DNA from: Vibrio cholerae ATCC 14035 | Lineage (GTDB): Bacteria > Pseudomonadota > Gammaproteobacteria > Enterobacterales > Vibrionaceae | Length of the DNA stretch: 32,000 nt | Assembly (NCBI RefSeq): GCF_000621645.1 | Contig: NZ_JHXR01000003.1 | Location: forward strand, 30,001-62,000 | Reading direction: 5' to 3' | Shown: piece by piece, positions 2,361-28,358 of the stretch | Numbering within the stretch: the stretch's first letter is position 1 | Layout: every line of letters starts with the position of its first letter | The notes under the pieces: model-generated | The model's input: the letters and a program-made list of their open reading frames with translations, nothing else | Databases searched by the model: none | What the model was told of the DNA's origin: nothing | Program-made: the position numbers and the translations under genes

Positions 2361-3038
2361 ATGACACCTCCAATGAATAAATTAACAAGTAAGCTCGGTT
2401 ATACCTTTAAGGAGACTGAGCTGCTTAATCTGGCGCTGACACACCGCAGCGCCAATGGTAAGCACAATGAACGTCTTGAGTTTCTGGGCGATTCAATTTT
2501 AAGTTTTGTCATTGCTGACGAGCTCTATCGCCGCTTCCCGAAAGTGAATGAGGGAGATATGAGCCGCATGCGTGCCACCTTAGTGCGTGGTAACACGTTG
2601 GCGGAGCTGGGTCGTGAATTCGATCTGGGAGATTACTTAAAATTAGGTCCAGGTGAGTTGAAAAGCGGTGGTTTTCGCCGTGACTCGATTCTGGCCGATG
2701 CCGTAGAAGCCATCATTGGTGCGATCTACCTCGATAGTGATTTAGAAACCGCGCGCCGCATTGTGCTGGAGTGGTATCAATGTCGCCTTGAGGAGATCAA
2801 ACCGGGCGCATCACAAAAAGACCCGAAAACTCGTTTACAAGAGTTTTTGCAAGGCAGAAGAAAACCGCTGCCCGTCTACACTGTGACTAATATTAAAGGT
2901 GAAGCGCACAACCAAGAATTTACGGTTGCGTGTGAAGTTGCAGGTATGGACACGCCTGTGATCGGTAAAGGCACCAGCCGCCGCAAGGCAGAGCAAGCGG
3001 CTGCAGAAACGGCTCTGGAGCAATTAACTCATGGCTGA
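2361..3038 (+). CDS. rnc: Ribonuclease III
   Basis: 225 aa with the RNase III signature [11 protein letters not shown] and a C-terminal dsRNA-binding domain (...[21 protein letters not shown]). Precedes era as in E. coli. Confidence 0.95.
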
Positions 3039-4005
3039 TCAAGAATTTGATATCGATGCATACTTTGCTTCTCGCAGCGAAGGTCAAACGGCGACATCGA
3101 CACCAGAGGACCAACACTGCGGCTTTGTCGCAATTGTCGGTCGTCCTAACGTGGGGAAATCGACCCTGCTGAATAACCTTTTAGGGCAGAAGATTTCGAT
3201 CACCTCGCGTAAACCACAAACTACTCGCCACCGTATTATGGGCGTGGAGACCGATGGCAATTATCAGGCGATATACGTTGATACCCCAGGACTACACATT
3301 GAAGAAAAACGCGCCATTAACCGTTTGATGAACCGTGCGGCGTCAAGCTCATTGAGTGATGTCAACTTAGTGCTGTTTGTGGTGGAAGGTACTCACTGGA
3401 CCGCCGATGACGAGATGGTGTTCAACAAGCTGCAAAAAGCCAACTTCCCGGTGGTGCTTTGTGTGAACAAGGTGGATCAGGTGAAAGATCGTAATGAAGT
3501 GATGCTGCACATGCTGGAGCTTTCTAAGCGCATGCAGTTTGTCGATATCGTACCGATTTCCGCTAAACAGGGTAAAAACACCGACGTGCTGAAAAAGCAT
3601 GTACGCGACCATTTACCGAAAGCTGTGCACCATTTCCCTGAAGAGTATGTGACGGATCGTTCACAGCGCTTTATGGCATCTGAAATCGTGCGTGAAAAGC
3701 TGATGCGTTTTACTGGCGAAGAGCTGCCGTATTCGGTGACGGTGGAAATCGAGCGTTTCGATTACAACCCAGATACCGATGGTTTCCACATCAACGCCCT
3801 GATTTTGGTTGAGCGTATCGGCCAGAAGAAAATGGTGATTGGCAAAAACGGCGAGAAGATTAAAACCATCGGTCGTGAAGCACGTCTCGATATGGAAGAG
3901 CTGTTTGGCCGCAAAGTCTACCTTGAGACTTGGGTTAAAGTGAAATCTGGGTGGGCGGATGATGAGCGCGCCCTGCGTTCACTCGGCTATATCGACGATC
4001 TCTAA
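3031..4005 (+). CDS. era: GTPase Era
   Basis: 324 aa with G1 [10 protein letters not shown]3 DTPG, G4 NKVD and a C-terminal KH domain ending ...[17 protein letters not shown]. The ATG overlaps the rnc stop by 8 nt (ATGGCTGA). Confidence 0.95.
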
Positions 4006-4012
4006 ACACGAG

Positions 4013-4039
4013 AGGTGGCAACGGTGTTGCCACCTTTTT
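4013..4039 (+). terminator. Strong intrinsic-terminator-like hairpin between era and recO
   Basis: AGGTGGCAAC (4013-4022), loop GGT, GTTGCCACCT (4026-4035), then TTTT. This is a perfect 10-bp stem. Confidence 0.6.
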
Positions 4040-4074
4040 CATTTCTACCTTCAACTGCATGATAGAAAGGGAAA

Positions 4075-4800
4075 ATGTCAGACGGACTGCAACGCTGTTT
4101 TGTTCTGCACCGCCGCCCTTACAGTGAATCGAGCTTAATTCTCGATGTGTTCAGTGAGGAGTACGGTCGAGTCACATTAATGGCCAAAGGTGCGCGCGGA
4201 AAACGCTCCAACCTCAAAGGTGCGCTACAACCTTTCACTCCTTTACTGCTGAAATGGTCGGGCAATGGCTCGATGAAAACCTTACGCCAAGCCGAACCAA
4301 TTAGTCTCGGTTTACCGCTTTCTGGCGTCTATCTCTATTCTGCTATGTACATCAACGAGCTGGTGGATCGGGTGTTAATGCCAGAAGTCGCTAGTCCTGG
4401 GCTATTTCATGATTATCTGTTTGCGCTCACTGAACTGGCGCAAAGCACCAATCCAGAGCCAGCGCTACGCCGCTTTGAACTCGCTTTGCTTGCTGCGATG
4501 GGCTACGGCGTCGATTTTCTGCATTGTGCGGGAACGGGCGAGCCAGTTTCACCTGACATGACTTACCGTTATCGTGAACAAAAGGGCTTTATCGCTTCGG
4601 TACGTCGCGATAATCTCACTTTTCTTGGTAATGAGTTGATTGCGATCAGCGAGCGGCGTTTTACCAGCAAAGAACAACTGCAAGCGGCAAAACGCTTTAC
4701 ACGTTTAGCCTTAAAGCCGTATCTTGGCGGCAAACCTTTAAAGAGTCGTGAGTTGTTTCGTCAAACAACTCTACCTAGAGCACGGAGTACAGAAGAATGA
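4075..4800 (+). CDS. recO: DNA repair protein RecO
   Basis: 241 aa, similar in length and N-terminal sequence (...[33 protein letters not shown]...) to RecO. Sits in the conserved rnc-era-recO-pdxJ context. Confidence 0.9.
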
Positions 4801-5528
4801 GCTCAATTTATCTTGGTGTGAATATCGATCACGTGGCGACTTTGCGTAACGCACGCGGCACACAATATCCCGATCCAGTGCATGCAGCGGAAATTGCTGA
4901 ACGTGCGGGCGCGGATGGCATCACCATCCATCTGCGTGAAGATCGTCGTCACATCACAGATCGCGATGTCCGTATTTTGCGTGAAACGCTGCAAACGCGC
5001 ATGAACCTTGAAATGGCGGTGACGGATGAGATGGTCGAGATTGCGCTGCAAACTCAGCCAGAATACGTCTGCTTGGTGCCGGAAAAACGTGAAGAGTTGA
5101 CCACTGAAGGCGGTCTTGATGTGCTAGGTCAGTTGGAGCGTGTCAAAGCGGCAACGGAAAAACTCACTGCGGCTGGCATTAAAGTTTCTCTGTTTATCGA
5201 TGCCGATCGTGAGCAAATTGATGCGGCCAAAGCTTGTGGCGCACCTTTTATTGAGCTGCATACCGGGCACTATTCCGATGCGAAAAGCGATGTCGATCAG
5301 CAAAATGAGCTGAAGAAAATTGCAGCCGCAGCGGCTTACGCACACGATTTAGGCATTACGGTGAATGCGGGGCATGGCTTGACCTACCACAATGTCGCGG
5401 CGATTGCGGCCATTCCTGAAATTTACGAGCTGAACATCGGCCATGCGATCATTGGTCGCGCGGTATTTGATGGTTTAGCGAAAGCCGTCTCCGATATGAA
5501 AGCCATCATGGTTGCTGCGCGTCGATAA
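4797..5528 (+). CDS. pdxJ: Pyridoxine 5'-phosphate synthase
   Basis: 243 aa. [23 protein letters not shown]...[18 protein letters not shown] closely matches E. coli PdxJ as I recall it. ATGA overlap with the recO stop. Confidence 0.95.
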
Positions 5529-5531
5529 CGT

Positions 5532-5912
5532 ATGATCGTTGGACTCGGAACGGATATCGCTGAAATCGAACGGGTTGAGAAAGCGTTGGCGCGCTCAGGA
5601 GAAAACTTTGCGCGCCGCATTCTTACCGATTCTGAACTAGAGCAATTTCATGCTTCGAAGCAACAAGGGCGCTTTTTAGCCAAGCGCTTTGCCGCCAAAG
5701 AGGCAGCTTCGAAAGCTTTGGGAACCGGTATTGCTCAGGGGGTGACTTTCCATGACTTTACCATTAGCCATGATAAGTTGGGGAAACCTTTACTGACCTT
5801 GAGCGGTCAAGCGGCAGAGTTAGCCTCGCAGCTGCAGATTGAAAATATTCATCTTTCCATTTCCGACGAACGCCATTATGCGATGGCGACCGTGATCCTT
5901 GAACGCCGTTAA
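5532..5912 (+). CDS. acpS: Holo-[acyl-carrier-protein] synthase
   Basis: 126 aa. [15 protein letters not shown]...[19 protein letters not shown]...[17 protein letters not shown] matches AcpS. Starts 3 nt after the pdxJ stop. Confidence 0.95.
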
Positions 5913-5922
5913 TGCGGCGTTC
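5901..5922 (+). terminator. Hairpin spanning the acpS stop codon (weak terminator candidate, no T-tract)
   Basis: GAACGCCG (5901-5908) pairs with CGGCGTTC (5915-5922) across a 6-nt loop that includes the TAA stop. No U-run follows. Confidence 0.25.
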
Positions 5923-6168
5923 ATGCTTTGGTTCATTTCAAATCTTTCATTTTCTGACTATATTTTCCTTACGTGCTTAATTTTCCCCAACGGAAGAATG
6001 AGTTTTCTGACTCTTTGCACCCAACGGGTATTTTTGTCTCACCAATCACTAAAATGAAAGATATTGGGTGATGTCATTAATCATCAATGACGATCGAAAT
6101 GGAGAATATTTCACTTGGCGTGCAGGTTGGCGCCGTGGTGGAAATCGCGCTTGCTTAGGGATAACCCA

Positions 6169-7461
6169 ATGATACGAAGCCTTTTTCAAACACGCCTGAT
6201 GAGCGGTGTTGTCGGTCTATTAGCCATGACGAGCGGTGCTGCCTTAGCGGCCGACTGGAGCGTTTCTGGTTATGGTTCGATTGGTTATAGCTATGAAAAT
6301 GAAGAGAATCTCGGTTTCCTGCGCAACATCGCTCAGCCAGATGATTATCAACGCAACGGATCGTTTAAGCCAGATAGCAATATTGGGGTTCAGTTTGATC
6401 TGCAGTTAGATCCGCAATGGTCGGTGACCACTCAGTGGGTAATGAAAGAGCGAGTCGAGCAGCGCTTCGATGATATTACTGAGCTGGCTTTTGTGCGTTA
6501 TACGCCGGATGAAAATTGGGATATTCGCCTAGGGCGCCTTGGGCTTAACGCCTATATCGCCGCTGACAGCCGACGGATTGACTACGCCCACCTTTGGTTA
6601 CGCCCTCCCCAAGAGTTTTATGGCGGCATTTTCTATGATGCCATCGATGGGATTGATGTCACTTATCGCAGCCAATGGGATGAGATCACTTGGTCGTTAG
6701 GCGCGCAATATGGCCGAATTAAACAGAAACTGCAAAATACCGCTTCCAGCGAAATTTCTGCCACGCAATCCGATCAAACATTAGCTTTGGTGTTTTCACT
6801 CGAACAGGATCGTTGGTTTGGACGCCTCTCCTATGTGCATGTCGGGCAACTGAAGGTGGATCTAGACGGTAATTCTCTACTGGGTATTCAAGTCGTCAAT
6901 CAACTGGCGCAAGCCGGGCTTGGCCCGATCAGCACCGAAGCGGCGCAGTTAGCTGAGCAAATCAATCTTCAAGAAGAAACCATAGAGTATTGGCAATTGG
7001 GTTTTGGCTATCGAGGCGATCAGTGGTCACTCCAATCAGAAATTTATACCATCCTTGGTGAGAAAGCCGTGGTTCCTGAAGGGGTCGGTGGCTACGCCAT
7101 TGCTGGGTATACTCTCGGCAATGTCACACCTTATGTTATCTACGGTCGGTTTAACCCGAAAAATCCGCCCTACCAAGCGCAGTCTGATTGGGGGTTATCC
7201 CCTGTCAATGGCGCGCAATTGGCAGAGGTACAGAAATGGTTGATTGGTGGCATTAACTCCACTTACATCGATCAGCAGACGTTTTCACTCGGAGTCCGCT
7301 GGGACGTCACTGCTCAGATAGCTTTGAAAGCACAATATGATTACATCCAGATTGCCGATAATGGCTATGGATTATGGGCCATTCCTTTAGAAGCGGATTT
7401 GCAGGGTCTGCAGGGGCGGGATGTGCAGCTGTTTTCTGTCAGCGTTAACTTTGTGTTTTAG
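6169..7461 (+). CDS. Porin-like outer-membrane beta-barrel protein (430 aa precursor)
   Basis: I prefer the ATG at 6169 over the track's TTG at 6115. It gives a signal peptide MIRSLFQTRLMSGVVGLLAMTSGAALA|ADWS. The sequence shows alternating amphipathic strand patterns rich in Y/G/W, and a C-terminal ...QLFSVSVNFVF with a terminal Phe typical of OMP beta-signals. The family call (general porin type) is by eye only. Confidence 0.6.
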   Translation: MIRSLFQTRLMSGVVGLLAMTSGAALAADWSVSGYGSIGYSYENEENLGFLRNIAQPDDYQRNGSFKPDSNIGVQFDLQLDPQWSVTTQWVMKERVEQRFDDITELAFVRYTPDENWDIRLGRLGLNAYIAADSRRIDYAHLWLRPPQEFYGGIFYDAIDGIDVTYRSQWDEITWSLGAQYGRIKQKLQNTASSEISATQSDQTLALVFSLEQDRWFGRLSYVHVGQLKVDLDGNSLLGIQVVNQLAQAGLGPISTEAAQLAEQINLQEETIEYWQLGFGYRGDQWSLQSEIYTILGEKAVVPEGVGGYAIAGYTLGNVTPYVIYGRFNPKNPPYQAQSDWGLSPVNGAQLAEVQKWLIGGINSTYIDQQTFSLGVRWDVTAQIALKAQYDYIQIADNGYGLWAIPLEADLQGLQGRDVQLFSVSVNFVF

Positions 7462-7470
7462 GAGGACTCA

Positions 7471-7881
7471 ATGCGATATTGGTTACTCCTCATTCTTTTG
7501 CTGAGTCCATGGGTTTCGGCTTCCGCTGAATTGTATGTGGTTGCTAGCCCGAAGAGTCCGATTATGGAGATTAATAAGGAGCAGTTATCCGCTTTATACC
7601 TTGGACGTAATCGCGTGGTGGGCAACACTTACATTAATCAGGTGTTAGATCGGAGTGGTACGGTGCGTCAGCGCTTCTTTTTGCAGGTGACCAATATGCA
7701 AGAGAGCCAAATCAACGCTTATTGGGCCAAACTGAAATTCTCAGGGCGGCTGCGTGCGCCGGAATCTGTGGTGAGTGAACAAGAGCTGATTGCCAAATTA
7801 GAAGAGAATCCGTTCTCGATTGGCTATACCGATCAAGTGCCCAATGACGCGCTGAAAGTATTACTGGTGCTCTATGACTGA
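7471..7881 (+). CDS. Small exported periplasmic protein (136 aa), possibly a truncated PstS-like or type-2 periplasmic-binding fold
   Basis: AGGAGG Shine-Dalgarno directly after the porin stop. Signal peptide MRYWLLLILLLSPWVSASA|ELYV. The motif ...QINAYWAKLKFSGRLRAPESV...FSIGYTD resembles short phosphate-binding-protein-like domains I recall. That fold assignment is tentative. Confidence 0.5.
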   Translation: MRYWLLLILLLSPWVSASAELYVVASPKSPIMEINKEQLSALYLGRNRVVGNTYINQVLDRSGTVRQRFFLQVTNMQESQINAYWAKLKFSGRLRAPESVVSEQELIAKLEENPFSIGYTDQVPNDALKVLLVLYD

Positions 7882-9166
7882 TCAAACGCGCACTTCGCCA
7901 CTGGTTAATCGCTTACTAAAGATGATTTCACTGTGTGCGCTTGGGTATTTGCTGATCATTTTGGCCATCATTATTCCACGCGGCATACAGAGTGTTGAGC
8001 AGCAAAAACAAGAGCTGGAAGAGAAGCTTGCGCTCTCCTTGAGTAACTCGGCGGCCATTGCACTGTATGTGAATAATTACGATATTGCCTCCGAGGTGAT
8101 GGATGCGCTGCTGCTCCATCAAGAGATCAATGCGGTTAAGTTAGCCAGCGTGGATGGCATTGTCTTTGAACGAACCACCATGCCCACAACCTACAAAGAA
8201 CAGAATTATTGGAGTGATGCGAACCGCTACCGATTAGATTCTCCCGTAGATGGTAATTTGATTGGCTATCTGATGATTCATGAGGATCATCAGGTAATTC
8301 GTCAGCAAGCCATTAATCAGATTCTTGATCAGATAGCCGTGGTTTTGATCCAGTTTCTCGTGACTTTTATTGCGCTTATCTGGATCGTTCGCCGCTTGGT
8401 CGGTAAACCCCTGACGGATCTTTCACAGGCGTTATCCGAAGTGCGGCCAGATCATGATCGCAAAGTGGCGGTAGCCGCAGAAGATCACCACAACGAGATT
8501 GGTTTGGTAGCCAAAAGCATCAATGAATTTATCGACGCTTCCCATCAAGCCTTGCTGCGTGAGCGCGAGCTGCGTCAACAGATTGAACGTTGGGAAAGCT
8601 ACTATCGCACCATTGCCGAACAAGACACTCTGACGGGACTAAAAAACCGTTTAGGTTGTGAGAAGTTCGTGCTCCGCAAACAGCGTGCTAGCACCACCAT
8701 GGTACTGCTATTGATTGATTTGGATGGTTTTAAGCAGGTGAATGATACCTTGGGGCATGCGGCTGGTGATGAGGTATTACGTGAAATCGCTAAGCGTTTT
8801 TATGCCTTGGCGCAAACGCACTTTTCTGATTTTGTGGTCGGACGGCTCGGTGGCGATGAGTTTGCTATTTACATTCCGCTTGATGAATTTGTTGCCGAAT
8901 CTATCGAGCGGTTTGCGGCTCAGTTGATCGAATCCTCCTCTGAGCCGATTGCATTGGGTCAGCAGAGTGCGCAAGTGGGTTGCAGTATCGGGATTAGTCA
9001 TATGAACAGTCTGCACATTGACTTAGAAAAACTGCTGCTACAAGCCGATAAAGCCATGTACTGGGTCAAATACAGAGGCAAACATGGCTATCATATTTAT
9101 CGAATGGGGGAAGAGATCCTGCCTCTTCCCAGTGCGAAAGAACTCAAGCAGGATCAGTTCAGATAG
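7874..9166 (+). CDS. Membrane diguanylate cyclase: TM, ~115-aa periplasmic domain, TM, HAMP-like linker, GGDEF
   Basis: 430 aa. TM1 is MISLCALGYLLIILAIIIP and TM2 is IAVVLIQFLVTFIALIWIV. A HAMP-like segment (RRLVGKPLTDLSQAL...NEIGLVAKSINEFIDA) follows, then a GGDEF domain (LTGLKNR...LIDLDGFKQVNDTLGHAAGDEVL...RLGGDEFAIY). ATGACTGA overlap with the upstream gene. Confidence 0.85.
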   Translation: MTDQTRTSPLVNRLLKMISLCALGYLLIILAIIIPRGIQSVEQQKQELEEKLALSLSNSAAIALYVNNYDIASEVMDALLLHQEINAVKLASVDGIVFERTTMPTTYKEQNYWSDANRYRLDSPVDGNLIGYLMIHEDHQVIRQQAINQILDQIAVVLIQFLVTFIALIWIVRRLVGKPLTDLSQALSEVRPDHDRKVAVAAEDHHNEIGLVAKSINEFIDASHQALLRERELRQQIERWESYYRTIAEQDTLTGLKNRLGCEKFVLRKQRASTTMVLLLIDLDGFKQVNDTLGHAAGDEVLREIAKRFYALAQTHFSDFVVGRLGGDEFAIYIPLDEFVAESIERFAAQLIESSSEPIALGQQSAQVGCSIGISHMNSLHIDLEKLLLQADKAMYWVKYRGKHGYHIYRMGEEILPLPSAKELKQDQFR

Positions 9167-24549: not shown

Positions 24550-25812
24550 TTAGCCGACAAACACTGCTTGAATCGCGTAGAAGAAAACCACGGCTAAGAG
24601 TGCGCCTGCCGGTAGAGTGACGACCCAAGAGGCAACGATGTTACGTACCACTCCTAAGTTCAGTGCAGCAATACCACGTGCGAAACCAACACCCAGTACT
24701 GCACCAACCAGAGTTTGCGTAGTTGAAATCGGTAAGCCTGTGCCTGACGCCAGTACAACGGTTGAAGCGGTTGCTAGCTGGGCTGCAAAACCACGGCTTG
24801 GCGTCAATTCTGTAATGCCAGTACCGATGGTTGCCATCACTTTGTGGCCTAATGTTGCGAGACCGACGACGATACCAAAACCACCCAGAGGAAGAATCCA
24901 CCATGCGATAGAGCTCTTCGCGGCCACTTCACCCATGTGTTCAACAGTTGAAACCACTGCAGACAAAGGACCAATCGCGTTCGCTACGTCGTTTGAGCCG
25001 TGCGCAAAAGCCATAGCACACGCGGTGATCACCATCAGGATACTGAAGATGCTTTCCACACCCGCGAAACCATGGTCTTCATCGCGATTAGCGAATTTCT
25101 TCTGAATGTAGAGATAGCCGCCGACCATCACGATGGCAGAAACCACCGCGGACCACATCCAAGCTTCTGAGCTCGAAAGATGCAGGCCAACGTGTTTAAG
25201 ACCTTTTTTGATGGTAACCAGAGCAATCACCATAGTGGTGATGAACATGTATACCGGCACGAAACGCTTGGCATTGATCAGCGGTTTTTCTGTATCGAAA
25301 ATGAGGCGTTGTGCGCTGACAAAAATGAGGTACGCAAAGAAGCCTGAAATCACCGGAGTAATAATCCAACTGCCGACAATGCCTTTTACTGAGCTCCAAT
25401 CGACCGCTTCTGTACCGACAGAAACGCACGCGAAACCAATAATAGCGCCGATGATAGAGTGAGTGGTAGAGACTGGCCAGCCCATGTAAGACGCCACCAG
25501 TAACCAAGTGCCTGCGGCAAGAAGCGCTGACATCATGCCGTAAATCAGCACATCGGGTTTATCTGCGAAGAGAGAGGTTTCAATCACCCCATTACGGATC
25601 GTTTCTGTCACTTCACCACCGGCTAAGTAAGCGCCTGCGAATTCAAAAATCATCGCAATAATAATGGCTTGTTTAACGGTGAGTGCTTTTGAACCTACTG
25701 AAGTGCCCATTGCATTGGCAACATCGTTTGCACCAATACCAATCGCCATCAAGAAACCGAAGACAGCTGCCACAATAATCAAGACGGTGCCGTAGTTCGC
25801 AAGGATTTCCAT
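24550..25812 (-). CDS. pit: Inorganic phosphate transporter, PiT (PHO4) family
   Basis: I prefer the ATG at 25812 (MEILANYGTVLIIVAAVFGFLMAIGIGANDVANAMGTSVG...) over the track's TTG at 25851. It carries the duplicated GANDVAN / GSNDVAN PiT signatures and is polytopic. Confidence 0.9.
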   Translation of the reverse strand: MEILANYGTVLIIVAAVFGFLMAIGIGANDVANAMGTSVGSKALTVKQAIIIAMIFEFAGAYLAGGEVTETIRNGVIETSLFADKPDVLIYGMMSALLAAGTWLLVASYMGWPVSTTHSIIGAIIGFACVSVGTEAVDWSSVKGIVGSWIITPVISGFFAYLIFVSAQRLIFDTEKPLINAKRFVPVYMFITTMVIALVTIKKGLKHVGLHLSSSEAWMWSAVVSAIVMVGGYLYIQKKFANRDEDHGFAGVESIFSILMVITACAMAFAHGSNDVANAIGPLSAVVSTVEHMGEVAAKSSIAWWILPLGGFGIVVGLATLGHKVMATIGTGITELTPSRGFAAQLATASTVVLASGTGLPISTTQTLVGAVLGVGFARGIAALNLGVVRNIVASWVVTLPAGALLAVVFFYAIQAVFVG

Positions 25813-25954
25813 CGTAATACCTAGTTGTTGATAACAAGCGGAGCAACCCAAGCTTGTTTTTGACGCAGATAACGACCTTCAGCGTAGAAAATACTCATCG
25901 CCTAGCAGGTCGTCATACTGTGGTTGCTCTTCGTTATTTGGTTAACTTTTAAAT

Positions 25955-26840: not shown

Positions 26841-28358
26841 ATGGAAACCGAGATAGAACTGAAGTTTTTTGTTTCTCCAGATTTTTCAACCATCTTACGC
26901 GCGAAGATTTCTGAAACCAAAGTTCTTCAGCACAGCTGTCGGGAGTTAGGAAACACGTACTTTGATACCCCCGATAACTGGTTGCGTCAGCATGATATTG
27001 GACTGCGCATCCGTCGTTTTGATGAGGTGTATATCCAGACGGTGAAAACCGCAGGTCGTGTGGTCGCCGGTCTACATCAGCGTCCGGAGTTCAATGCCGA
27101 ACATCACAGTAATGAGCCCGATCTTTCGTTGCATCCTGCCGATATCTGGCCGCAAGGAAAAGAGCTGACTCAGCTACAAGCCGAACTCATGCCGCTCTTT
27201 TCGACCAACTTCACTCGTGAACAGTGGCTGATTAGCATGGCTGATGGTAGCCAAGTGGAAGTCGCCTTTGATCAAGGTCTTGTGGTGGCGGGTGATCGCC
27301 AAGAGCCGATTTGTGAAGTGGAGCTGGAACTTAAGTCTGGTCAAACCGATGCACTGTTTACCTTAGCGCGCCAGCTTTGTGAGCATGGCGGTATGCGCTT
27401 AGGGAATCTTAGCAAAGCCGCTCGTGGCTATCGCCTCGCTGCCAATTATTCGGGCGATGAAATTCAACCCATGGCTTTGGTCAGTGTCGATAAAAATGAC
27501 ACTGCCGAGTCTTGCTTTATCCGTGCACTGGAACATGCGCTGGCGCACTGGCATTACCATGAGCAAATCTATACCGAACGTGAAAACGTGGCGGCATTGC
27601 ACGAAATTCGTCATGCAGTGAGTTACCTGCGCCAACTGCTTTCCGTCTACGGCGGCATCATTCCGCGCCGCGCCAGCGCGATTTTGCGCCAAGAGCTCAA
27701 ATGGTTAGAGCAAGAGTTACAGTGGCTAAAAGAGTTTGAATATCTGGAAAGTTTGCAAGAAGACAAGGGCTACGCGCTGCGTAAACTGGATGCGCGTAAG
27801 TTTTTAGTCACCGCGTTGAAAACCTTGCAAGAAAGCTTGCCACAGCGTGAAGATACACTGCGTTTACTGAGCAGTGCCCGTTATACCGGCTTGTTACTGG
27901 ATCTAAGTCGTTGGGTGCTGACACGTGGTTGGCAGCCGTTTTTAGATGACAAAGCACGAGAAAAAATGGCGCAGCCGCTGGAAGCGTTCTCCGTAAAACA
28001 ACTTGACCGCACATGGGCGGAGTTGATGGAAGCTTTTCCACCGGGTAAAACCTTAACCGTACAAGAATACCTCGATCAGCAGTATCGCCTAATGCGTAAC
28101 CTTTACACTGGGGTGAGTTTTGCAAGTTTATACGATGCTGAAAACCGTCAGGCATTTCGGATGCCGTGGGCGGATTTGTTGCACGGTATTGATGATTTAT
28201 TGCGCCTCAAACCATTAGAGCGTTTGGTGGATTTGCTACAAGGTGAAGAGCAAGATCAACTGAAACGTTGGCTGATTCGTCAAGAGAACTCCATTTTGCA
28301 TGCGATGGAGCAAAGCCGCACGATGGGTGTTGAAGCGCATCCGTATTGGCGTGAGTAG
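26841..28358 (+). CDS. ygiF: CYTH-CHAD protein (YgiF-type inorganic triphosphatase)
   Basis: 505 aa. The N-terminal METEIELKFFV carries the CYTH ExExK motif, and the C-terminal ~280 aa are helical and CHAD-like. Its ygiF position next to ygiM and glnE matches E. coli synteny. Confidence 0.8.
   Translation: METEIELKFFVSPDFSTILRAKISETKVLQHSCRELGNTYFDTPDNWLRQHDIGLRIRRFDEVYIQTVKTAGRVVAGLHQRPEFNAEHHSNEPDLSLHPADIWPQGKELTQLQAELMPLFSTNFTREQWLISMADGSQVEVAFDQGLVVAGDRQEPICEVELELKSGQTDALFTLARQLCEHGGMRLGNLSKAARGYRLAANYSGDEIQPMALVSVDKNDTAESCFIRALEHALAHWHYHEQIYTERENVAALHEIRHAVSYLRQLLSVYGGIIPRRASAILRQELKWLEQELQWLKEFEYLESLQEDKGYALRKLDARKFLVTALKTLQESLPQREDTLRLLSSARYTGLLLDLSRWVLTRGWQPFLDDKAREKMAQPLEAFSVKQLDRTWAELMEAFPPGKTLTVQEYLDQQYRLMRNLYTGVSFASLYDAENRQAFRMPWADLLHGIDDLLRLKPLERLVDLLQGEEQDQLKRWLIRQENSILHAMEQSRTMGVEAHPYWRE

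Follow-up and report, generated by a model that had tools for sequence, protein, structure and literature searches.

Gene Content and Identity of the Locus

The window analyzed here is a stretch of 32,000 nucleotides from Vibrio cholerae ATCC 14035 (contig NZ_JHXR01000003.1, positions 30,001 to 62,000), and positions are counted from its first letter. It carries the genes era-recO-pdxJ-acpS, then three co-oriented genes, vpvA-vpvB-vpvC, and then barA (varS). The coordinates of the three genes were taken from the list of open reading frames (ORFs) and the raw sequence. The first, vpvA (VC2456; 6169–7461, +), encodes a predicted porin-like outer-membrane β-barrel of 430 amino acids, beginning at the ATG of MIRSLF. 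It is followed by vpvB (VC2455; 7471–7881, +), for a protein of 136 amino acids with an export signal, and by vpvC (VC2454; 7874–9166, +), for a membrane protein of 430 amino acids with a GGDEF domain.

An exact-sequence look-up found each of the three proteins to be residue-for-residue identical to a Vibrio cholerae database protein. The exact VpvA sequence is present on 735 contigs, and exact VpvB and VpvC are found in V. cholerae records such as ABQ20219.1 and ABQ20644.1. In the literature, VC2456 is the VpsT-bound vpvA locus and VC2454 is vpvC (PMC8754643, PMC12456836). The arrangement in the window, three co-oriented genes with the cyclase last and adjoining varS/barA, is that of vpvABC. 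Given the exact protein identity, the matching order pdxJ-acpS-[three genes]-barA beside varS, and the published operon names and phenotypes, the cluster is the vpvABC (“vibrio phase variation”) operon of V. cholerae, VC2456–VC2454, and is already known. The operon was reportedly described and named by Beyhan and Yildiz in 2007; it has carried its name since then, is under active study, and is not a discovery of this work. It is a major driver of cyclic di-GMP (c-di-GMP) and of the rugose biofilm in the cholera pathogen.

VpvA and VpvB were termed hypothetical proteins in 2021 (Nucleic Acids Research; PMC8754643), and a 2025 paper already has a model in which VpvA is the porin, VpvB the periplasmic binding protein, and VpvC the diguanylate cyclase (PMC12456836). 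An initial annotation of this DNA, made from the sequence alone, had presented the cluster as a candidate undescribed signaling module. This is wrong, because the proteins are exact V. cholerae sequences, the operon is published (PMC8754643, PMC12456836), and the idea of a module is contained in the 2025 paper. The codon at 8591–8593 (+) of the window is TGG, so that VpvC carries Trp240, the smooth (wild-type) allele; the rugose variant is VpvC W240R (PMC8754643, PMC10333796).

Related loci were taken as the best 80 from a degenerate-pattern scan with one genome per species. The pattern, Q[VI]NAYWA[KR], came from a six-sequence VpvB alignment, and both the pattern and the best-80 selection skew this sample to closer relatives. 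Six-frame ORFs of the loci were searched with VpvA, VpvB, and VpvC from the window.

The genes are tightly packed. The spacing between vpvA and vpvB is 9 nt, and the TAG stop codon of vpvA overlaps an AGGAGG sequence (tAGGAGG) ahead of the vpvB ATG. The vpvB and vpvC reading frames overlap by 8 nt (ATGACTGA). The same 8-nt overlap, with a vpvA/vpvB gap of 8–12 nt, was found again in nearly all Vibrio loci (L001–L022), and overlaps of −1, −4, or −11 are frequent in distant relatives. Because these junctions recur across Vibrio and overlaps are common farther away, the spacing is not due to chance, and the arrangement suggests that the three genes are translationally coupled. The coordinates, the 9-nt gap with AGGAGG, and the 8-nt overlap verified here bear out the packing for coupling that the initial annotation had proposed.

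The Cyclase VpvC and Its Periplasmic Domain

VpvC has two strongly hydrophobic segments, at about residues 17–35 and 151–173, which flank approximately 115 periplasmic residues (residues ~36–150; 7979–8323, +). A weak Pfam match to HAMP covers residues 172–221, and the GGDEF domain spans residues 249–403 (E = 1.7e-34). The GGDEF motif itself is intact at residues 326–330 (8849–8863, +), as in active GGDEF cyclases, and ahead of it the sequence reads HFSD in place of the customary inhibitory RxxD. VpvC is an active diguanylate cyclase (PMC12456836, PMC8754643).

The overall order of transmembrane segment, periplasmic domain, transmembrane segment, HAMP, and GGDEF is the architecture of YfiN, as had been read from the sequence initially. 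The best NCBIfam match of VpvC is DgcN/YfiN, covering model positions 10–390 of 390, although its 155 bits fall well short of the 325-bit cut-off, and this score stems mostly from the GGDEF domain. BLASTP aligns VpvC end to end with E. coli DgcN at 26 % identity; with hhalign, the alignment is limited to the GGDEF domain. E. coli DgcN itself, used as a control, matches CHASE8 (1.3e-33) and GGDEF. The periplasmic domain of VpvC scores 14.9 bits against CHASE8, whose gathering score is 27, and CHASE8 is the top Pfam match, below threshold (E = 0.02–0.08), in three of ten periplasmic segments of the family.

The NCBIfam model HK_near_YfiR_like matches VpvC residues 12–220 (E = 2.5e-10) and also 41 of 66 family members. 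VpvC-type periplasmic segments scanned alone gave no NCBIfam match. Since the match is lost in this way, it probably rests on the transmembrane and HAMP parts, and we do not use it as evidence of homology of the periplasmic domain.

An AlphaFold2 model of VpvC residues 30–155 (predicted local distance difference test, pLDDT, 79) begins with a pair of helices, continues with a sheet of four strands, and ends in a helix leading back to the membrane. In a Foldseek search of the Protein Data Bank (PDB), WalK comes first with its PAS-like extracellular domain (4ywz; E = 8e-4, TM-score 0.52). A LapD orthologue is second, matched in its periplasmic domain (4u64; E = 6.5e-3), and dCache chemoreceptor domains are next. 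The model thus suggests a PAS-like fold for the periplasmic domain. WalK extracellular and LapD-type periplasmic domains both work by binding partner proteins. A profile search of proteins with this sensor domain gave 11 matches; the homologues P0330, P0331, P0332, and P0339 are annotated with Pfam PF26769.

The Outer-Membrane Component VpvA

VpvA begins with a signal peptide of residues 1–27 (MIRSLFQTRLMSGVVGLLAMTSGAALA, followed by AD), which ends in ALA before AD. Its C-terminus reads SVNFVF, and the C-terminal phenylalanine is conserved in at least 90 % of the VpvA family. The match of VpvA to the Pfam family Porin_4 reaches 26.6 bits, 0.4 short of the cut-off of 27, and a match to OMP_b-brl is weak. 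Among 66 VpvA homologues from the related loci, 17 match OMP_b-brl, 12 match Porin_4 (E ≤ 0.01), and three match Porin_O_P, with a best E of 8.5e-5; VpvA itself has no Pfam match to Porin_O_P.

We found no OmpA domain in VpvA by Pfam and no cysteine lipobox in its signal peptide. In the control, E. coli YfiB matches OmpA at 1.2e-17. These sequence features point to a distant barrel of the porin superfamily and not to an OmpA-type YfiB. They agree with the initial proposal that a β-barrel takes the place of the OmpA-like lipoprotein.

The annotated start of vpvA varies among public records, with lengths of 427, 430, and 445 amino acids. A TTG at 6115 would make VpvA 448 amino acids long; within 6115–6169, a canonical signal peptide results only from the ATG at 6169.

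VpvB Resembles One Lobe of PstS

VpvB has a signal peptide of residues 1–19, ending in ASA before ELY, and a mature part of 117 residues. Together with the signal peptide of VpvA and the two hydrophobic segments of VpvC, this agrees with the three envelope compartments to which the products had been assigned from the sequence. VpvB alone has no match in Pfam or NCBIfam. When a Vibrio alignment was used for a full scan with HMMER, 3,897 clusters (at 50 % identity) fell into the family at E ≤ 1e-3, and among the best 150 of these matches almost all are 128–190 amino acids long. PBP_like_2 is matched directly by 15 of 122 diverse family members. DUF4154 is matched in Pfam by none of the 122 and not by VpvB; the control, E. 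coli YfiR, matches DUF4154 at 5e-31.

The profile of the VpvB family matches the PstS structures 4q8r, 4gd5, 4h1x, 4exl, and 1twy with E of 4e-9 to 3e-7. The match is restricted to PstS residues ~77–185 of about 250, the middle lobe. An AlphaFold2 model of VpvB from the 122-sequence alignment has a pLDDT of 94, and its top 22 Foldseek matches in the PDB are all phosphate-binding proteins (PstS). The TM-score, about 0.6 for the query, drops to about 0.35 for the target, half of which is covered. Structures of YfiR, though present in the searched library, are absent from the top 50 matches, and hhalign gives the VpvB family a probability of 0.9 % against E. coli YfiR. The two lobes of a type II binding fold were not found in VpvB, in which only one PstS lobe is matched.

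Profile and model together thus indicate that VpvB is a single-lobe homologue of PstS, about half of that protein, and not YfiR-like. The same preference for a PstS-like or periplasmic-binding-protein-like assignment over YfiR had been stated in the initial annotation, and the searches against PBP_like_2/PstS and DUF4154 that it had asked for came out in that direction. As a single lobe, VpvB cannot clamp a ligand as PstS does.

The VpvB family keeps D60, S63 (66 of 122), R66, F69 (122 of 122), Y84, W85, F90, G92, P97, and Y119, and has an almost invariant YWAxLxFxG...PP helix-loop. In the SGTRxxF turn of PstS, the residues aligned with S63, R66, and F69 are S, R, and F; the Gly-Thr of SGT is not conserved. 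No cysteine is present in 108 of the 122 members.

This residual turn bears on the possibility that the system senses phosphate or another oxyanion, with VpvA as an anion-selective porin and VpvB retaining the anion binding of PstS. The PstS lobe to which VpvB is homologous is the one with the SGT phosphate-binding turn, the VpvB family conserves Ser63, Arg66, and Phe69 at aligned positions, and three of 66 VpvA homologues match Porin_O_P (see above). However, the whole N-terminal/C-terminal lobe of PstS, which supplies about half of the phosphate ligands, is absent from VpvB. The loss of the Gly-Thr from the turn and the lack of a Porin_O_P match in VpvA itself argue in the same direction, and we regard oxyanion sensing as quite improbable.

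The YfiN-like architecture of VpvC raises a different possibility, a sequestration of the YfiBNR type, in which VpvB would repress VpvC until envelope stress causes VpvA to capture VpvB and the cyclase is freed. The best NCBIfam match (DgcN/YfiN) and the sub-threshold CHASE8 signal in three of ten periplasmic segments fit such a scheme. The structural relatives of the sensor domain also include WalK and LapD-type domains, which bind partners, and the genes vpvA and vpvB are always adjacent, even without vpvC, which fits a physical A–B pair. Neither partner, however, is homologous to its YfiBNR counterpart: VpvB is not a DUF4154 protein by domain search, by hhalign, or by fold, and VpvA has neither an OmpA domain nor a lipobox. 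Disulfide-dependent behavior is reported for YfiR, and this has no counterpart in VpvB because 108 of 122 family members are free of cysteine. In addition, vpvA and vpvB are described in PMC12456836 as adding to rugosity rather than restraining it, which is the opposite of the loss of a YfiR-type repressor.

The lack of homology and the positive effect make sequestration the less likely course, and we consider it doubtful. We do not place it lower because the positive sign is second-hand and comes from the W240R background. The initial annotation had suggested an analogous relay built from parts not homologous to YfiBNR. The non-homology holds; the sequestration logic is doubtful in view of the positive effects just mentioned.

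Conservation of the Porin, Lobe, and Sensor

The 80 related loci span Gamma- and Betaproteobacteria, Magnetococcales, and Desulfobacterota. They include Vibrio, Grimontia, Enterovibrio, Neptuniibacter, Ketobacter, Reinekea, and Methylococcaceae, as well as Rhodocyclaceae, Sideroxydans, Thiobacillus, Magnetococcales, Desulfuromonadales, and Desulfamplus. A VpvA homologue is encoded directly upstream of VpvB in 74 of the 80 loci. The full A–B–C set with GGDEF is present in 56 loci, seven have A–B followed by a protein with the VpvC-type N-terminal module and no GGDEF, and a few have the order B–A–C or duplicated A genes.

With a hidden Markov model (HMM) of the domain, the periplasmic sensor was found to adjoin the A–B pair in 73 of 80 loci. 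In five of the seven sensor-negative loci, a contig end is no more than about 1.5 kb away, and the other two (L046 and L053) have duplicated A–B pairs. The trio extends far beyond close relatives; confinement to them was the outcome that the initial annotation had itself named as refuting its module.

The cytoplasmic part of the sensor protein varies. Pfam assigned GGDEF to 59 of 66 downstream proteins, about 26 of them with PAS-type domains. Histidine kinase outputs account for seven (HATPase_c in seven, HisKA in five), five with a receiver domain and four with Hpt. In each of four more remote loci on long contigs, a VpvA homologue sits directly upstream of the VpvB relative (4/4). A sensor-GGDEF gene follows in two of them, from Pseudoalteromonas (L084) and a soil metagenome (L087), and the two Thalassolituus loci (L085 and L086) have an A–B pair without a sensor.

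Read from gene content, A–B is the invariant core, usually accompanied by the periplasmic domain, and the cytoplasmic output is interchangeable. A survey of operon distribution has found many vpvAB-only genomes, and its authors suggest that vpvAB is a conserved ancestral sensing unit that was later joined to vpvC (PMC12456836). Our 80-locus sample refines this 2025 proposal, in that a “missing vpvC” appears in some cases to be a kinase with the same sensor.

The vpvAB-only genomes (PMC12456836) could also mean that VpvA and VpvB form a self-contained uptake or export unit of the outer membrane, a channel with a periplasmic adaptor that is co-transcribed with the cyclase and does not control VpvC. 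Isolated or duplicated pairs that lack a nearby sensor (L046, L053, L085, and L086) are consistent with this. Against it, 73 of 80 loci encode a sensor-domain protein beside the pair, its start codon usually overlapping the preceding stop codon, and the domain stays while the output varies. A constant domain with a variable output is the pattern expected if A and B work with the periplasmic domain and not with the output. We therefore think it unlikely that the pair is independent of the sensor.

Several loci depart from the usual arrangement (locus coordinates in parentheses). There is a tandem A–B–A–B in L046 (4716–8677), and L053 has two divergent A–B pairs with no sensor (2681–6423). Two or three VpvA paralogues precede the cyclase in L029 (4976–10728) and L032 (3439–5998). 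The order of the porin and small-protein genes is not fixed, because the Methylomonas loci L072 (5878–9294), L066 (386–3674), and L073 (557–4023) read B–A–C. In the Thalassolituus locus L085 (2421–5429), a same-strand gene for a 430-amino-acid class III nucleotidyl cyclase (Guanylate_cyc) lies ahead of A–B. This protein gave no match to the VpvC sensor HMM; it may be an alternative output partner of A–B.

Truncated vpvC ORFs occur in V. mimicus CAIM 602 (318 amino acids; L001 6401–7357) and V. metoecus OP3H (265 amino acids; L002 6398–7195). The vpvA ORF is truncated or split in V. metoecus (L002 5329–5991) and V. aestivus (L016 4718–5760). Unless they are errors of assembly, these ORFs represent frameshifts or pseudogenes.

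Proposed Mechanism

The mechanism that we consider most likely, and on balance probable, is one in which VpvA acts as a channel and VpvB as a co-receptor that docks on the VpvC sensor and activates the GGDEF domain. VpvA, a channel of the porin superfamily in the outer membrane, would admit a cue or hold VpvB at the outer membrane. VpvB would be exported to the periplasm with one PstS-type lobe instead of a closing two-lobe clamshell, and would dock on the PAS-like periplasmic domain of VpvC as a positive modulator. The signal could be a solute entering via VpvA or an altered state of the VpvA–VpvB pair. It would then travel via the second transmembrane segment and HAMP to the GGDEF domain and turn it on, and the rise in c-di-GMP would, through VpsT and VpsR, increase the expression of biofilm matrix genes. 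The unit of A, B, and sensor may be an old, portable input cassette that feeds PAS-GGDEF cyclases or hybrid histidine kinases elsewhere.

Both VpvA and VpvB carry predicted export signals. VpvC drives rugosity (PMC12456836, PMC8754643). According to PMC12456836, which cites the 2007 study, vpvA and vpvB have a positive effect on c-di-GMP and on rugosity in the W240R background.

Several observations weigh against the co-receptor mechanism. The usual anion pocket needs more than a single PstS lobe, and in the VpvB of V. cholerae glycine takes the position of the family Ser63. The model of the sensor domain is of moderate confidence (pLDDT 79 from a 12-sequence alignment), and its structural matches have TM-scores of about 0.5. 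A–B pairs with no sensor within 5–6 kb exist in L046, L053, L085, and L086. Finally, polarity on vpvC could account for part of the vpvA and vpvB phenotypes, and these were measured in the W240R background.

A broader reading, which we put forward tentatively, is that A–B with a PAS-like sensor is a widespread, portable cassette spanning the envelope, with a free-standing PstS-derived lobe as co-receptor in place of a clamshell binding protein. If this is true, it would be a mode of ligand recognition or docking not yet described for sensors that depend on binding proteins, and the surface of the missing PstS lobe might come from the sensor domain or the porin. For the search for the input signal, it is useful that VpvB is half a PstS, that the periplasmic domain of VpvC appears PAS-like, and that three periplasm-facing parts feed varied outputs. 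These three points direct experiments to the protein interface between VpvB and VpvC (or VpvA and VpvB) and away from a classical closed ligand pocket.

Regulatory Region and Genomic Setting

The start at 5913 chosen in the initial annotation takes in a 256-nt regulatory region ahead of vpvA (5913–6168, +). A terminator-like hairpin with a 10-bp stem at 5900–5923 closes the acpS unit, and a single promoter-like site was found in the acpS–vpvA intergenic region, at 5937–5964. Two promoters and two VpsT boxes have been mapped upstream of vpvA (PMC8754643). An RpoS peak at promoter P2 and RpoS control of vpvABC are described in PMC12456836, and VpsT and RpoS drive both promoters (PMC8754643, PMC12456836). 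The operon is under VpsT/VpsR and RpoS control.

At the other end, vpvC (+) and barA/varS (−) converge, and the 3′ ends of their coding regions share 13 nt (9154–9166). A terminator scan of the window found no terminator-like hairpin between them. In view of this overlap and the lack of a hairpin, transcription of the two genes may mutually interfere.

The genes pdxJ-acpS lie upstream and barA downstream of vpvABC in 20 of 20 Vibrio loci (at least 16 species), and the GC content of the operon is 0.48, compared to 0.49–0.52 in the flanks. In view of the conserved synteny and normal GC content, we reject a recent horizontal insertion, and the initial description of the cluster as accessory-like does not stand. 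The separation of acpS and barA in E. coli reflects an old rearrangement between families, not a mobile insertion.

Three other ORFs of 433 amino acids in the window were considered as possible products of repeats or insertion sequences. They encode enolase, a PHO4 transporter, and a methyl-accepting chemotaxis protein, and a search for DNA repeats gave none; such an origin is rejected. A gene for a PHO4-family phosphate transporter and a CYTH-CHAD gene (24550–25851, −, and 26841–28358, +) lie some 15 kb downstream of vpvB. CYTH-CHAD is a domain pair associated with triphosphate and polyphosphate. The proximity of these genes to the PstS-like vpvB is probably coincidental.

Comparison with Known Systems

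The operon in the window is the same as published vpvABC, with the exact proteins, the same order, the varS/barA neighbor, and the smooth Trp240 (PMC8754643, PMC12456836). VpvB is labeled a periplasmic binding protein in the literature; here, only one PstS lobe is recognized in it.

Like the YfiBNR/TpbB/AwsXRO systems (PMC2837407, PMC3375315, PMC4887326), vpvABC is a three-gene c-di-GMP module that spans the envelope and ends in a cyclase of the same transmembrane, periplasmic, HAMP, and GGDEF design. The partners differ: the periplasmic protein is DUF4154 in YfiBNR and PstS-like in VpvB, and the outer-membrane protein is an OmpA-family lipoprotein there and a porin-type barrel here. The gene order is yfiR-yfiN-yfiB in one, and outer-membrane protein, periplasmic protein, and cyclase in the other. 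The periplasmic domain of VpvC is far below the CHASE8 threshold, and the vpvABC partners appear to act positively, not as a repressor and a sequestrator.

VpvB resembles the middle lobe of PstS/PBP_like_2 proteins (4q8r, 4gd5, 4exl, and 1twy) in profile and fold, including the S..R..F segment. It differs from them in being about half the size, with the other lobe absent, in not lying beside pstCAB, and in having its own conserved YWAxLxFxG motif.

In the polyamine sensor NspS–MbaA of V. cholerae, a homologue of a binding protein is likewise encoded beside a membrane enzyme of c-di-GMP, and NspS controls MbaA through the periplasmic domain of MbaA (PMC8079147, PMC8967002, PMC5646818). The system differs from vpvABC in that NspS is PotD-like with both lobes present and its ligand known, that MbaA belongs to the GGDEF-EAL enzymes, and that no dedicated outer-membrane component takes part. 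NspS–MbaA is the closest precedent for the way in which VpvB and VpvC probably work together.

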